A stretch of 64,000 nt of DNA from Octopus vulgaris. Lineage: Eukaryota. A program made the translations under genes and the position numbers. Position 1 is the first letter of the stretch; each line of letters begins with the position of its first letter. The notes under the pieces were generated by a model. It saw only the letters and a program-made list of their open reading frames with translations, was not told the DNA's origin and did no database searches. The stretch spans positions 2,728,001 to 2,792,000 of the forward strand of contig OX597828.1 in assembly GCA_951406725.2 (NCBI GenBank). The letters are read 5' to 3'. This document shows, piece after piece, positions 22,141 to 55,620 of this stretch.

Positions 22141-22854
22141 TGAAAAATTTGACGTCAACAAAAAGGGGTGCGGCTGGAGATTTAACTTTTTAATCACTAC
22201 GATTGTTTCCATGCAACGTAGTTCTCCGGGTATGCAGGTACTTGATTATGCAACTGTTTCGCTGCATTAAGAGATCTAGTTGTGTTTCTTCAGGCGATAT
22301 GTAAATATTATCTTCGTAAGTTTAAAAATTCTCGACTTCAAGAACATCCCCTCTCTCTCTCTGTGTCGTGGCCTGAACTTAGTAGTAGTCACTGGGCTTA
22401 TCAAGATGTGTTGTTGCTGAAGGGCCGTTGGCAAACTGCTTTGAATGTGTAGATGCAGTGGTATGGTGATTCTGGTGCTGTTAAAATGCGAATCCCTTTA
22501 AACGGCAACCACTTTAACAATACCAGAATCACCATCCCACTGCATCCACACATTCAAGGCATTTTGCCAACGACCAACGACCAACGGCAAAAACATATCC
22601 TGATAAGCTCAGTGACTACTACTAAATTCAGGCCACGACGGACACAGAGGATGATCTTGAAGCCGAGGATTTTAAACTAACGGAGACAATATTTACACAT
22701 CACCGGAGGAAATACAACTAGGTCTTATAATGCAGGGAAACAGTTGCATAATGAAGTACCTGCACACCCGGAGAATTACGGTGCGTGGAAACAATTGTAG
22801 TAATACAAAATAAATGTCTAACCGTACCCCTTCTTGTTGACTTCAATTTTTTCA
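22141..22854. repeat. About 715 bp imperfect palindrome (arms about 22141-22488 and 22510-22854); Penelope-like remnant
   Basis: Arms are diverged reverse complements (roughly 80% by eye) and each carries a hammerhead-like fold. Confidence 0.85.
22193..22298 (-). ncRNA. Type-I hammerhead ribozyme-like motif with extended stem II
   Basis: AUCGC-CUGAAGA-long stem II (CAACUAG.UCUC/GAGA.CUA.GUUG; UGCAG/CUGCA)-GAAA-C(AAUC)G-UA-GUGAU; base of stem II is mismatched. Confidence 0.55.
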
Positions 22855-23210
22855 ATTATATATTTACTACACGATAAGTGCCCTCACACAAGCCTGGAAG
22901 TACGTATAATATTACTACTGGAAAGCTCAGGGTAAATCTAAAGATGGACGAGCTTTATACTGTACTCTACTATATTTTTAACCGAATATACCATATATAT
23001 ATATATATATATATATATATATATATATATATATCGAAACCGCGATCCTACGCCGCGAGTCCGCTGCCCTAACAACTGAGCCATTGCGCCTCCATATATA
23101 TATATATATATATATATATATATATATATATATATATATATATATATATATATATATATAAGAGAGAGAGAGAGAGAGAGAGAGAGAGAGAGAGAGAGAG
23201 AGAGAGAGGG

Positions 23211-23455
23211 GGAGGCGCAAATGCTCAGTGGTTAGAGAAGCCGACTCGCAGCGTTGGATCGCGGTTTCGATTCCCAGACAAACTAAATCTCCACGAGGCT
23301 CCGACAGGAGGTGGTGGTGATCCCTGCTGTACTCTTTCGCCGCAACTTTCTCTCACTCTTTCTTCTGTTCGCCTGCTCGCTTAGCAGGCGTGATTTGAAG
23401 GCTAAAACAATGCGAAACGCATTGTGACCAGCGATGTGTCGCAACTTCTACGTGA
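23211..23455 (+). mobile_element. tRNA-derived SINE family D, with an inverted head fragment at 23033-23093
   Basis: Head ggaggcgc..gctcagtggttag...gtttcgattccc is box A/B-like. Confidence 0.7.
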
Positions 23456-24010
23456 TATATATATATATATATATATATATATATATATATATATATAGAG
23501 AGAGAGAGAGAGAGAGAGAGAGAGAGAGAGAAATTAGAGATAAAACCACTATTAGGCAAATCAAACAGTGAAAAACATTAACCAAAACATAAAAATAAAA
23601 ATAATTAGTATAATATACAAAATATATAAAATATAAAATTTAAAATTTTAATTATTTAAATTTAAAATTTTTAATTTATATTTATAAATTTTTATATTTT
23701 TTAAATTTTAAACTAATAAATTTTTAAACTTTTAAACTTTTTTTTTTTAGACTTTAAGAAAAATTTTTTTATTATATATATATATAAGGATAAGATCGTT
23801 AATTTAAAATAAAATAACGATTTTATCAAGTGGCCTGCATGGGAATAATAACCTTCAAAGGTAATGATTATTAAAATCATAAATTAGGGTATCTACGAGA
23901 TACCACCATGCTGAAAATAGCAGCCATGATCTGACTCCTTAATTTTTCATATATCAACACGGAGAGAAAACGAAGAGACAAGATGAAACTAGTACAAAAA
24001 GTACTGGATA

Positions 24011-24069
24011 ATTCTAGATCCCAGATTTCTGACTTTGCATTTAGGAATGCTTTGCCTCGTCAGTAGAAT
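24011..24069 (-). ncRNA. Type-I hammerhead ribozyme motif
   Basis: AUUCUA-CUGACGA-GGC...GUC-A-GAAA-UC(UGG)GA-UC-UAGAAU; 6-bp stem I, AUC cleavage triplet, one extra A before GAAA. Confidence 0.65.
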
Positions 24070-24283
24070 ACACACAGAAAAGAATCATAAATACATATAT
24101 ATATATATATATATATATATATATATATATATATATATATATATATATATATATAAATACAACATACGAATACTTACATATACGAACGTATATATATATA
24201 TATATATATATATATATATATATATATATGTGTGTGCATGTGTGCATCATGACCATTTCAAAATGCCCGCCTTTTCTGTGTGT

Positions 24284-24342
24284 ATTCTACTGACGAGGCA
24301 AAGCATTCCTAAATGCAAAGCCAGAAATCCGGGATCTGGAAT
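24284..24342 (+). ncRNA. Type-I hammerhead ribozyme motif
   Basis: AUUCUA-CUGACGA-GGC aaa GCAUU ccua AAUGC aaa GCC-A-GAAA-UC(CGG)GA-UC-UGGAAU. Confidence 0.65.
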
Positions 24343-52366: not shown

Positions 52367-52765
52367 CTTTTCTACTCTAAGCACAAGGCCCGAAATTTGG
52401 TGGGGAGGGGCCCAGTCGATTATATCGACCCTGGTGCGTAACTGGTACTTAATTTATCGACCCCCGAAGGGATGACAGATAAAGTCGACCCCAGCGGCTT
52501 TTGAACTCAGAACGTAAAGACAGACGAAATACCTATTTCTTTACTACCCACAAGAAGCTAAACACAGAGAGGACAGACAAGGACAAACAAACGGATTAAG
52601 TCGATTACATCGACCCCAGTGCGTAACTGGTACTTATTTAATCGACCCCTGAAAGGATGAAAAGCAAAGTCGACCTCGGCGGAATTTGAACTCAGAACGT
52701 AACGGCAAACGAAATACGGCTACGTATTTCGCCCGGCGTGCTGACATTTCTGCCAGCTCGCCGCC
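52367..52765 (-). mobile_element. Dimeric SINE family B with about 21-bp TSD
   Basis: ctct(c/t)gatattagtgttatat flanks the whole dimer. Confidence 0.88.
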
Positions 52766-53367
52766 TTCTCTTGATATTAGTGTTATATTCGAAGCGGTCA
52801 TACTAGCATGGTGCTGTAAATTCTACGTGAAACGTTTTACGGATCTTCGATTTTTCAAAAACTATAATATCATTGTTACAAGCGAAAGTTCCCACACACG
52901 ACGGAAAGAGGATCAGAGAAGTTGTAAAGCAAATCCCTATTTTTACTATCTTCACCTCTCCCTTTATTTTCCCCTCTTAACTCAGTACGACTGAAACCTT
53001 GAGGATATTCATTTCTTGTCGACCACTACTTGCACTAATGAGCTTTGTACATTCAAACAAATTGATACACAGTTTCAATATTGTTGACTGTTATAAACTT
53101 GTCAACATTGAAACTTTTTAAGATTTTTTTCTAATTCATAATTCTAAATTTTTACCATTGATAAACAAAAAATATTGTTGAAACTAGTTTGGTATATGTG
53201 TAAAATTTATTTTAAACAGATACATGTTTTTCAAATTTAAGTGCATTTTCAACTACAAATTTGCCTATATTTTTCCTGCGTGGAAATACACCCCCTTGAT
53301 ATATATATATATATATATATATATATATATATATATATATATATATATATATATATATATATATATA

Positions 53368-53597
53368 CTTTATTTAAAGCAGCAGAAAATTCTACAAAAC
53401 CTGTTACTCTGAGTTTCGCGTTGCCGTTCATCGGACAGTTTTTTCTAGCAAAAACTGTCCGATGAACGGCAACGCGAAACTCAGAGTAACAGGTTTTGTA
53501 GAATTTTCTGCTGATTTAAATAAAGCATATTACTCTACCACTGGTATTTGAGTACTCTTGTTTTCCACCTTGTTTCACATTTATGTGTTTACTCCGG
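53368..53597. mobile_element. (TA)n-embedded cassette with a 76-bp near-perfect palindrome (53368-53443 / 53450-53525)
   Basis: One mismatch and a 6-bp spacer; each arm holds a hammerhead motif. Confidence 0.85.
53451..53497 (+). ncRNA. Minimal type-I hammerhead-like motif (mirror copy at 53396-53442 on -)
   Basis: AAAACUGU-CCGAUGA-ACG gcaa CGC-GAAA-CU(CAG)AG-UA-ACAGGUUUU; U4C core variant. Confidence 0.6.
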
Positions 53598-53708
53598 TAT
53601 ATATATATATATATATATATATATATATATATATACGCGACTGTGAAGATTTGCATCCCCAACGTAAAACTTATAATGTAATACATGTCCTTGAAGTAGT
53701 AATTGTAC

Positions 53709-53786
53709 GCGGCTGAAGAAGGCCATAGACACACATTATGCATTATTATAAATCCGTCTAATAAAGGCCCGAAACATACGTACCGC
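53709..53786 (+). ncRNA. Type-I hammerhead ribozyme motif with canonical core, inside cassette 53636-53891 between (TA)n tracts
   Basis: GCGG-CUGAAGA-A-GGCC.UAGAC...GUCUA...GGCC-C-GAAA-C(AUAC)G-UA-CCGC. Confidence 0.75.
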
Positions 53787-55620
53787 TGAATCCTTGGCAT
53801 CGTGTTTTTATTTTGATTAATATACTCCACCACCTACACCACTAAATGGTATATACAGGTGCTTACAATTATCAAGTATTCACCCTGAATTTATATATAT
53901 ATATATATATATATATATATATATATATATATATATATATATATATATATATATACATATATACATGGGTTCACACGTACTTTGTCAATATAGAGAGGAT
54001 CTCTACCTATTTAGAGGAACTGACTACCGGATTCATTCCTCAAGTGATCATAGTTGCCACATAGTACCGCATGCAAGAAACTCCTACAATGTCTCACTAC
54101 AGACACCGTCAAAACCCATTGATCCAATAGCACTTTTCCTCGATTGTATTTCCATCTGGATTACGTCATTTGTCTATCTCTACGATCGTCCCAGGACCAC
54201 ATATCTACATTGGATAACGAATTAGGTCACCTGCGCATTTCCCTTATGTAGTACTTTTTCAAAAATATCCCATCTACTGTGTGAAACTGAAAAGATCCAT
54301 TTTTACGAGAAGCTGGGAATGAATGAAAAAGAGAACATAATACTTCCGTTAAAATCCTTCGTTACTAACGAATATTTTTCCTGGTGTTGCAGTAAAAAAT
54401 CAAATCTATATATTTGGTCTGAAAATTAAATCTATCAAGTGAAAGAATTAAGAAAAGAAAAAATCAGTGATAGCGATCATTTGTTTGTCAGAAAAAAAAA
54501 GTATTGAACACGTTAGCTAGGAATGTAACTAATATGAAATGCGTTATTCTTCAAGAATCCACACGAACAAAGATTCCATTACCAAACGACTGAGTGAACA
54601 TGATTGGGAGTCATTTTATCAACATCGGTAAATTCATCGTCAGATTTTTACATCATCAAAACGTTGAATTTTATATTTGCTGAGTAAATACTTCACACTT
54701 CATTAACAATGAAAAACTAATTCAAAGACAATTATTTATATAAAATTCATTCAATATATCTATGTAAAATGAAATCAAAGGTTGTTTTTAAAAACAGAAT
54801 CACAAACGAAAAAAATGCATTTAAAAAGATAACGCAATATCAAGTCGAAGGGAGAAAGAAACATTCTAAAACGACGGTTTATGAGTAATGGTTTCTTAAA
54901 ATAACCGAGTATTTCGTTATCGTTTTTATATTAATCGATTACATGTTGAAGGTTTGCGACACTGCTTTAGCTTTGTCTTTGCAATGGGAAACTTCTGTCC
55001 CGGTCATAGATTCGATTATTACTTCGTTTCTTAACTGTTCCTTCTTTGTGCTTACAAAGAATTTCTAGATTGTGGGCTGGGATGCCTTCATTAATCCATT
55101 ACTTTTTAATGGGTGACGGTGTTCAGAGCTAACCTCTGGTTATCAACAACATTGTTCGTGATCTCTTGTTATTTTTACCTCTGATTGAGCAGACCTATAA
55201 TCAAAGGCATTCCAACCATGACCTTCATATCTTATTATGAATACATTGGACTACGTTATCCAACATATTCTTTCTTTTTAAGTTGCTAGTGTTTGAATTG
55301 AAGGAGATTTGGCTGCTTTTTTCTCGCACACCATACTCCCTTACAGAGATTCGCTCATGGTCTGTTCGAGTTAAAAATGTTCTTGCCTAATTCTGAGCCC
55401 CAGTTGTTGTCATACACATAGTTAATGTTCTTGGGGAAATGAATGGTAGTCTCATTTCTTATTAACCCCTTGAAGAGGAGAAGTGATACTGACCGCATCG
55501 AAACACTGTGTGTGTGAGCAGTGCGATGTCTCGCTCTGCGCGGCACCATATTTTCAAATATACCATACTGAGAAGATTCTGTAAATACACTGTAAAATCC
55601 CTTGTATGAAAAAGGATGTT

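Follow-up and report, generated by a model that had tools for sequence, protein, structure and literature searches.

The stretch of the Octopus vulgaris genome analyzed here (contig OX597828.1, positions 2,728,001 to 2,792,000; 64,000 nucleotides (nt), below called the window) contains five short repeat cassettes, each with the predicted fold of a type-I hammerhead ribozyme. They are denoted F1 (22.1 kb), F2 (23.8 kb), F3 (26.4 kb), F4 (53.37 kb) and F5 (53.64 kb). Very probably, F3, F4 and F5 are 5'-truncated 3' ends (pseudo-long terminal repeats, pLTRs) of endonuclease (EN)-bearing Penelope-like elements (PLEs), F1 and F2 likely being of the same kind; their probable route into (TA)n is target-primed reverse transcription. 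The original prediction had described the cassettes as a guild of non-coding units, either Penelope-derived or retrozyme-like. Of this, the Penelope origin stands for F3, F4 and F5, but these are truncated ends of elements with open reading frames (ORFs), non-coding because of the 5' truncation, and the retrozyme-like, non-autonomous option fits F2 alone. The window abounds in TA and other microsatellites, and no fragments of PLE ORFs were found in it at E<1e-3. As predicted, the cassettes are unrelated outside the core, sharing no blastn match with each other at E<=0.05. The families were followed through the genome (2.80 Gb, 227 contigs), and L-numbers below are labels of the loci fetched from it.

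Protein-coding elements attached to the cassettes

Extension of the cassettes towards ORFs with a reverse transcriptase (RT) and a GIY-YIG domain, proposed with the original prediction, yielded full ORFs for F4 and F5, a linked EN for F3 with the full ORF in a sister family, and none for F1 and F2.

For F5, a large family was reached by way of a GIY-YIG fragment that lies antisense next to one copy. Fifteen long loci were examined, and each has a frame ending in GIY-YIG with F5 on the same strand 1.6-2.1 kb downstream; five of these loci retain intact RT+EN frames of 835-850 residues. According to motif inspection, the 836-aa ORF is a single one with RT and, at its C terminus, a GIY-YIG; the Pfam scan of this ORF gave neither an RT nor a GIY-YIG match and was uninformative. 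Its 1377 homologues are labelled PF26215, PF28514 or PF01541, with few names, argonaut among them. The ORF is flanked by direct pLTRs (partial tandem) in L199 and L195, the repeats in L199 being 4.4 kb apart. The ADKT motif is present, and the linker matches CxCx5C.

Upstream walking from F4 placed it 1.1-1.3 kb downstream of its own EN in L269, L278, L397 and L365. The ORF of about 710 aa also has RT and C-terminal GIY-YIG motifs on inspection, with RLRWK and SDKT present, and 727-residue frames 99-100% identical to the L397 query are numerous, so the F4 family is very young. The EN of both F4 and F5 lacks CCHH and has CxxC and CxH on either side of E and N. Judging by these sequences, F4 and F5 are pLTR ends of Hydra-type EN+ PLEs with intact RT+GIY-YIG ORFs elsewhere in the genome. 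They resemble the Hydra clade (PMC8557442) in the RWK/DKT motifs (RWA in F5), in a linker that is CxCx5C in F5 and has F for the second C in F4, in the CxxC and CxH that flank E and N, in inserting into (TA)n, and in a minimal hammerhead close to the 3' end whose stem III is palindromic. Unlike that clade, they have units of 3.35 and 4.4 kb, simple-repeat-rich 3' untranslated regions (UTRs) of 1.1-1.9 kb, and a tail of about 70 nt versus 30-40. The hammerhead sequences of F4 and F5 differ from the one listed for Hydra-1_Obim of Octopus bimaculoides, and an older F4 subfamily has the U4C variant. A third Hydra-type family, N2, has intact 717-residue frames (L284:5461-7611 on the minus strand, L285, L286); its hammerhead often is U4C, with the same stem III as F4, and its ends lie at about +37 and +104.

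The upstream walk from F3 reached an EN of the CX2-5CxxC/CCHH type. F3 lies downstream of such a Neptune-type EN in L352 and in four of the 10 closest EN relatives fetched (L397, L400, L401, L406); it follows partially in L399 and inverted in L404. The linker and EN cysteines were read in L352, and DKG, CX2-5CxxC and CCHH GIY-YIG are all found in the ORF of an intact sister family, 63-65% identical over the EN. This sister has F3-like direct repeats 6.2 kb apart, and pLTRs flank its ORF in L407 and L408. Since this EN lies upstream of F3 and the intact sister has F3-like direct repeats, F3 is assigned to the Neptune type, the call being based on motifs, with Neptune versus Nematis not settled by a tree. 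F3 and the sister share with Neptune PLEs the three protein features named above, the microsatellite bias and the pLTR hammerhead. No intact F3 ORF was seen in this older family. An EN found upstream of F3 in L104 was rejected as its partner, being that of N2: a same-strand F3 follows it only in the source locus of 30, and in 0/12 long loci. The young Neptune-type family itself (L407, L408, L410, L411) has intact frames of 884-1008 residues stop to stop; L407 contains a 6.2-kb tandem array, and the hammerhead seen in L408 is U4C.

F2 spans 23787-24489, and not from 23.5 kb as first stated. A spacer of about 190 nt lies upstream of its hammerhead, and in 22/35 spacer-bearing copies the element's own 3' end directly precedes the spacer, giving a period of about 490 nt. 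No PLE ORF was found after the spacer in 30 loci. F2 is likely a non-autonomous unit of about 490 nt, moved in trans by a PLE protein. Contigs from four sequencing runs, guessed to be RNA, cover F2 and show no ends, while a back-joint in them is explained by a duplicate within the query. The F1 family is old (78-83% identity), shows the same pattern of ends and is extended on the 5' side by simple repeats. An RT fragment beside F1 in L041 was assigned to N2 and set aside.

Copy number and insertion into TA tracts

None of the cassettes is single-copy: all five represent dispersed multi-copy families whose 3' end is fixed and whose copies are truncated to varying extents on the 5' side. The first-look candidate counts, which are not copy numbers, are 1833 for F1, 2392 for F2, 6650 for F3, 595 for F4 and 2826 for F5. 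Forty top candidates were scored per family, and the 30 best-scoring ones were used for the end counts, so the samples lean to young, complete ends.

The expected (TA)n enrichment is observed in each family. Given nearby positions as the control, (TA)4 occurs within 25 nt of the 3' end (45 nt for F3) in 25/29 copies of F1, 21/29 of F2, 17/29 of F3, 28/29 of F4 and 25/29 of F5, with the local background of 7-14% (7% for F4, 14% for F5). Some F1 loci share their flanks (twelve have one flank, two have another), and the F1 count after merging is 14/17. In the window itself, the F1 left arm lies 55 nt from the TA tract.

Tandem junctions run on into the 5' UTR without a TA tract, and two different positions of the element both abut TA (36/36 ends in F4 pairs selected by their ORFs). 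The absence of the tract from tandem junctions, together with the two abutting positions, favours TA as a target rather than a tail. The 'safe landing pad' proposed originally is not needed, as endonuclease preference explains the pattern.

Inverted pairs and spacing of the ends

An upstream inverted partner was found in 7/30 loci of F1, 15/30 of F2, 2/30 of F3, 19/30 of F4 and 13/30 of F5. The two arms of a pair end at different fixed points, with 5' truncation and with the tail on one arm only. Pairs of one long and one short end make up 23/25 head-to-head pairs in F4, 16/20 in F5, 11/12 in N2, 19/31 in F2 and 2/7 in F1; five F2 pairs are long+long. Moreover, 19 F4 pairs were chosen by ORFs alone, which removes selection on the ends; one was unscorable, and all 18 others have one short and one long end. 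If ends were chosen independently, the probability of 18/18 would be about 0.5^18. Counted from the predicted cleavage site, the short ends of these pairs lie at +37 (+39 in one) and the long ones at about +108; at two long ends the TA tract has an imperfect start, for which the script binned them as 'other'.

In general, the distance from the predicted cleavage site to TA is bimodal in F4, F5 and N2, with peaks at about 32-47 and 103-118 nt. The counts of short and long ends are 22 and 37 of 68 in F4, 11 and 23 of 46 in F5, and 14 and 11 of 34 in N2. The F1 ends lie about 57 and 195 nt past the cleavage site, the F2 ends about 150 and 235 nt. A search for a motif or fold common to the tails of F4, F5 and N2 gave nothing significant (scores equalled in 74-485 of 500 shuffles; z of the fold from -0.5 to -2.3). 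For the 24 published Hydra consensuses, the distance from the cleavage site to the end was worked out from the consensus lengths and motif coordinates given in the PMC8557442 supplement. It is 30-48 nt in 10 of them (36 nt in Hydra-1_Obim) and 88-153 nt in 11, with three outside both ranges; as consensus ends are curators' choices, this spacing is supporting only.

Cassettes of the window

The original prediction had four of the five cassettes as inverted repeats; true two-ribozyme inverted pairs are only three (F1, F2 and F4), all of them long+short.

F1 is a pLTR-like end of the old family (about 80% identity). Its left arm (22141-22488, minus strand) terminates at the short end, 57 nt beyond the predicted site of cleavage. 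Its predicted hammerhead at 22198-22293 (minus strand) combines the CUGAAGA box with a stem I of 5 bp, a stem II region of 77 nt and a near-palindromic stem III. The long end of the right arm (22510-22992, plus strand) abuts (TA)n at 22993-23034, and the box of its hammerhead (22704-22799, plus strand) is broken (CGGAGGA). The F2 left arm (23787-24270, minus strand) comprises most of the ORF-less unit, namely the spacer with internal TA, the hammerhead (24063-24017) and the long end; the right arm (24271-24489, plus strand) has a hammerhead at 24290-24336 and the short end against TA. The box in both arms is CUGACGA. F3 (26356-26540, minus strand) is the pLTR end of a Neptune-type element with the hammerhead at 26467-26441 (CUGAAGA). 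The second arm (26564-26653, plus strand) is the 3' terminus of a sister Neptune-type subfamily; as it has no hammerhead, is 85% identical to the first arm and is matched better by the sister, it is probably a separate insertion.

The F4 pair, a Hydra-type pLTR, consists of the left arm (53368-53446, minus strand; hammerhead 53434-53405), with the short end about 37 nt past cleavage, and the right arm (53447-53597, plus strand; hammerhead 53459-53488), with the long end 109 nt past cleavage. Both hammerheads have the CCGAUGA box (the U4C variant) and a stem II of just 2 bp with a GCAA loop. The (TA)19 tract at 53598-53635 is common to the F4 and F5 insertions. F5 (53636-53891, plus strand) is a single 5'-truncated Hydra-type pLTR with TA on both sides, the CUGAAGA hammerhead at 53713-53782 (plus strand) and the long end 109 nt past cleavage.

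One more TA-flanked inverted pair, the sixth, is located at 25282-25697, its arms being 96% identical over about 148 nt each. It matches the post-hammerhead region of another family (L240, L301) and, from this similarity, is probably a PLE end truncated below the ribozyme.

Hammerhead folds

In the hammerheads of F1-F5, the base after A9 is unpaired or mismatched, and stem III is palindromic. A hammerhead was predicted originally for all five cassettes, and each folds into one, though the box in the F1 right arm is broken and the second arm of F3 has none. For F1, the hammerhead was first read with a CUGGAGA box (A6G); this reading was given up in favour of a canonical box located upstream, which comes with a stem I of 5 bp and a long stem II.

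A strict hammerhead descriptor applied to the window matched 0/5 cassettes. A relaxed descriptor of the type-I hammerhead with self-complementary stem III gave five matches in the window (two in F2, one in F3 and two in F4), compared with a mean of 0.4 and a maximum of 2 in 30 dinucleotide shuffles. It missed F1 because stem II is too long, and F5 because of one mismatch in the stem III palindrome of the window copy; the F5 hammerhead was picked up by a second descriptor, and its palindrome is perfect in 29/30 aligned copies. The Rfam matches listed are microsatellites and hairpins that match microRNA (miRNA) models, all under the gathering score.

The full core of the predicted pLTR hammerhead is found in 6/30 copies of F1, 20/30 of F2, 25/30 of F3, 28/30 of F4 (U4C counted) and 29/30 of F5. 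Among homology-selected copies, conservation of the core clearly exceeds that of the flanks in the F3 subfamilies (0.967 vs 0.812, 99 copies) and does so slightly in F2, F4 and F5. The U4C substitution, a natural hammerhead variant with lower in vitro activity (PMC3088659), occurs in 88/123 F4 copies and in 0/36 ends of the youngest F4 subfamily. Self-cleavage of the cassettes is a prediction from the fold.

A set of fetched loci totalling about 1.9 Mb contains 313 descriptor matches in 47 clusters, 19 of them with at least two members, and many singleton matches also have a perfect palindromic stem III; PLE neighbourhoods are over-represented in this sample, and a few of the clusters resemble chance matches. 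The 19 multi-member clusters in such a sample imply that hammerhead-bearing PLEs of Octopus vulgaris are diverse, and these sequence matches point to dozens of hammerhead-bearing families in the genome.

Proposed mechanism

The GIY-YIG nuclease of the element would cut both strands of a TA tract, target choice possibly being guided by the cysteine linker, as hypothesized by Craig et al. (PMC8557442). Each DNA end would then prime reverse transcription at one of two fixed start sites within the pLTR RNA, both downstream of the hammerhead. If the two cDNAs terminate early and are joined head to head, the product would be an inverted pair of a long (tailed) and a short arm, and a solo end would result where just one arm survives. 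The hammerhead would ride along because it is located just 5' of the start sites; it is predicted to cleave weakly, either as a dimer through the palindromic stem III or with the help of a protein.

In Poseidon of Anolis (Frangieh et al. 2024, PMC11167929), the purified protein cleaves AT-rich DNA on both strands, and a dimeric form is predicted for it. Its two internal RT starts, downstream of the hammerhead, bound the tail as the ones proposed here, and its target is likewise AT-rich; the Poseidon hammerhead requires the protein for its cleavage, and insertion in vitro does not depend on the hammerhead. Unlike the long+short genomic pairs observed here, Poseidon shows no strand difference in the start site in vitro.

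A more speculative extension, to which we give a low chance of being correct, is that the Hydra-type hammerhead fold serves as a ruler and clamp of insertion, fixing the first RT start about 40 nt past cleavage across phyla. Two RNAs paired through stem III on the dimeric protein would give one target end at +37 and the other at about +108, and F2 would stand between a pLTR and a retrozyme, as a 490-nt intermediate that is dispersed and targets TA. That the hammerhead sets start sites or pairs two RNAs is speculation; if true, it would explain the strict long+short pairs and give the PLE hammerhead a cleavage-free role.

Alternative explanations

The strongest competing possibility, still an unlikely one, is that the cassettes are non-LTR retrozymes, that is, tandem units without an autonomous protein, which self-cleave, circularize and are copied by rolling-circle reverse transcription. 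It draws on F2, whose unit is ORF-less, has a head-to-tail period of about 490 nt and retains the core in 20/30 copies, and on a 2026 preprint (10.64898/2026.07.22.740005) that derives animal retrozymes from PLE pLTRs. Moreover, 21/22 upstream partial F2 units start at or after the predicted cleavage site, but this 5' barrier is suggestive only, and the start distribution fits ordinary truncation decay as well. The retrozyme origin is contradicted by the linkage of F3, F4 and F5 to ORFs; F2 itself is longer than the described monomers of about 300 nt, its hammerhead is minimal and PLE-type, and 0/30 spacer-selected F2 loci have two complete hammerheads in direct tandem. An improbable reading of the TA tracts is that they are tails or slippage products, grown from the AT-rich ends of the elements after insertion. 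Both end positions do coincide with short AT-rich motifs within the element, and TA is abundant in the genome sample (81 loci of 10 kb, with 4.8 matches of (TA)4 per kb), whereas the tandem junctions lacking the tract, the GG at the F4 end directly against TA, and the TA abutting both arms and many truncated 5' ends are not expected of tails. Finally, it is hardly credible that the folds arose by chance, from a loose motif matching AT-rich repeats, in spite of the failure of the strict descriptor and Rfam, the 2-bp stem II of F4 and the lack of excess conservation in the F1 core. The five relaxed matches, well above the shuffle mean, and the fixed distance of the motif from the 3' ends argue for genuine hammerheads, as do the architecture seen in published Hydra hammerheads and the recurrence of the F4 stem III sequence in Penelope-3_HM.

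The preferred interpretation, truncated PLE ends, also has observations weighing against it. Concerning the proteins, F5 has RWA in place of RWK, the F4 linker has F for the second C of CxCx5C, the tandem periods of the octopus Hydra-type elements (3.35 kb for F4, 4.4 kb for F5) exceed the published 'generally <3 kb', and both clade calls (Hydra, Neptune) are made from motifs rather than a tree. No ORF was found for F1 in 13 long loci, where the shared upstream sequence fades into simple repeats within about 0.9 kb, and no mobilising partner was found for F2. As for the ribozymes, hammerhead models of Rfam were absent from the regional scans and from the listed window matches (150 of 413), and two-sided compensatory changes within families are rare. 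The F1 core is not better kept than the flanks (0.906 vs 0.912), and 15/33 F1 copies have G12C. The latter most likely come from one re-amplified copy; the G12C copy was observed re-amplified with its flanks inside a larger repeat (L032-L040, L046-L048, L054, L056, L060).

Relation to known elements

The original prediction regarded TA targeting and opposed pairing as possibly undescribed in this lineage, but both are in print (PMC4209133, PMC8557442). Opposed minimal hammerheads 100-700 bp apart have been described in pLTRs, with many unrelated families per genome (Cervera and de la Pena 2014, PMC4209133). Craig et al. 2021 (PMC8557442) reported inverted 5'-truncated copies, tails and the (TA)n preference, the supplement listing both this preference and a canonical hammerhead for Hydra-1_Obim; inverted PLE copies and tails are also found in PMC3846280. 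As all these features are published, the cassettes belong to a known kind of PLE. They resemble the minimal metazoan PLE hammerheads (PMC4209133) in being type I with a short stem I, in the base after A9 and stem III described above, in the number of unrelated families within one genome, and in the opposed pairs, while the 2-bp stem II of F4 and the 77-nt stem II region of F1 differ from them. F2 resembles non-LTR retrozymes (Cervera and de la Pena 2020, PMC7229834; Li et al. 2026, 10.64898/2026.07.22.740005), being short, ORF-less and head-to-tail with a type-I hammerhead; unlike them, it is about 490 nt long, forms partial tandems and inverted pairs dispersed in TA tracts, and has a minimal hammerhead, no direct tandem with two ribozymes having been seen.

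The new details are the strict long+short pairing, the fixed cleavage-to-end spacing and the ORF-less 490-nt TA-targeting F2 unit in this lineage. The long+short rule, the ribozyme-to-end spacing and an F2-like unit in this lineage were not found in the literature, a comparison that covered published papers, with Repbase and Dfam outside it. The strict long+short rule is a constraint on models of insertion. F4, with many near-identical intact ORFs, two exact start sites and a defined TA target, would be a suitable system for testing what the PLE hammerhead does. Such TA-flanked hairpins are PLE ends, not to be annotated as miRNA precursors or unknown repeats; in the main text of the 2026 repeat annotation of Octopus vulgaris (PMC13282606), the words 'ribozyme' and 'hammerhead' are absent.

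Other repeats in the window

Related TA-flanked repeats at 37297-37649 (plus strand) and 39334-39612 (minus strand) have a CUGAUGA box and a hairpin, with no GAAA nearby; these may represent ends with half a core, of the sort listed for Naiad elements, or hammerheads that have decayed. A TA-flanked repeat end at 21920-22022 (minus strand) has matches in five other loci, and in L242 a similar end follows a CUGAAGA box. At 26738-26927, a small imperfect inverted repeat with matches in eight other loci lies between TA tracts. At 27131-27475, an element end that begins with CTAG beside TA is tandemly duplicated (217 bp); it is presumably Helitron-like. An open frame at 56245-56658 (minus strand) contains the motif HHDNARPH...PYSSDLA, which we take to be that of a mariner-like transposase.

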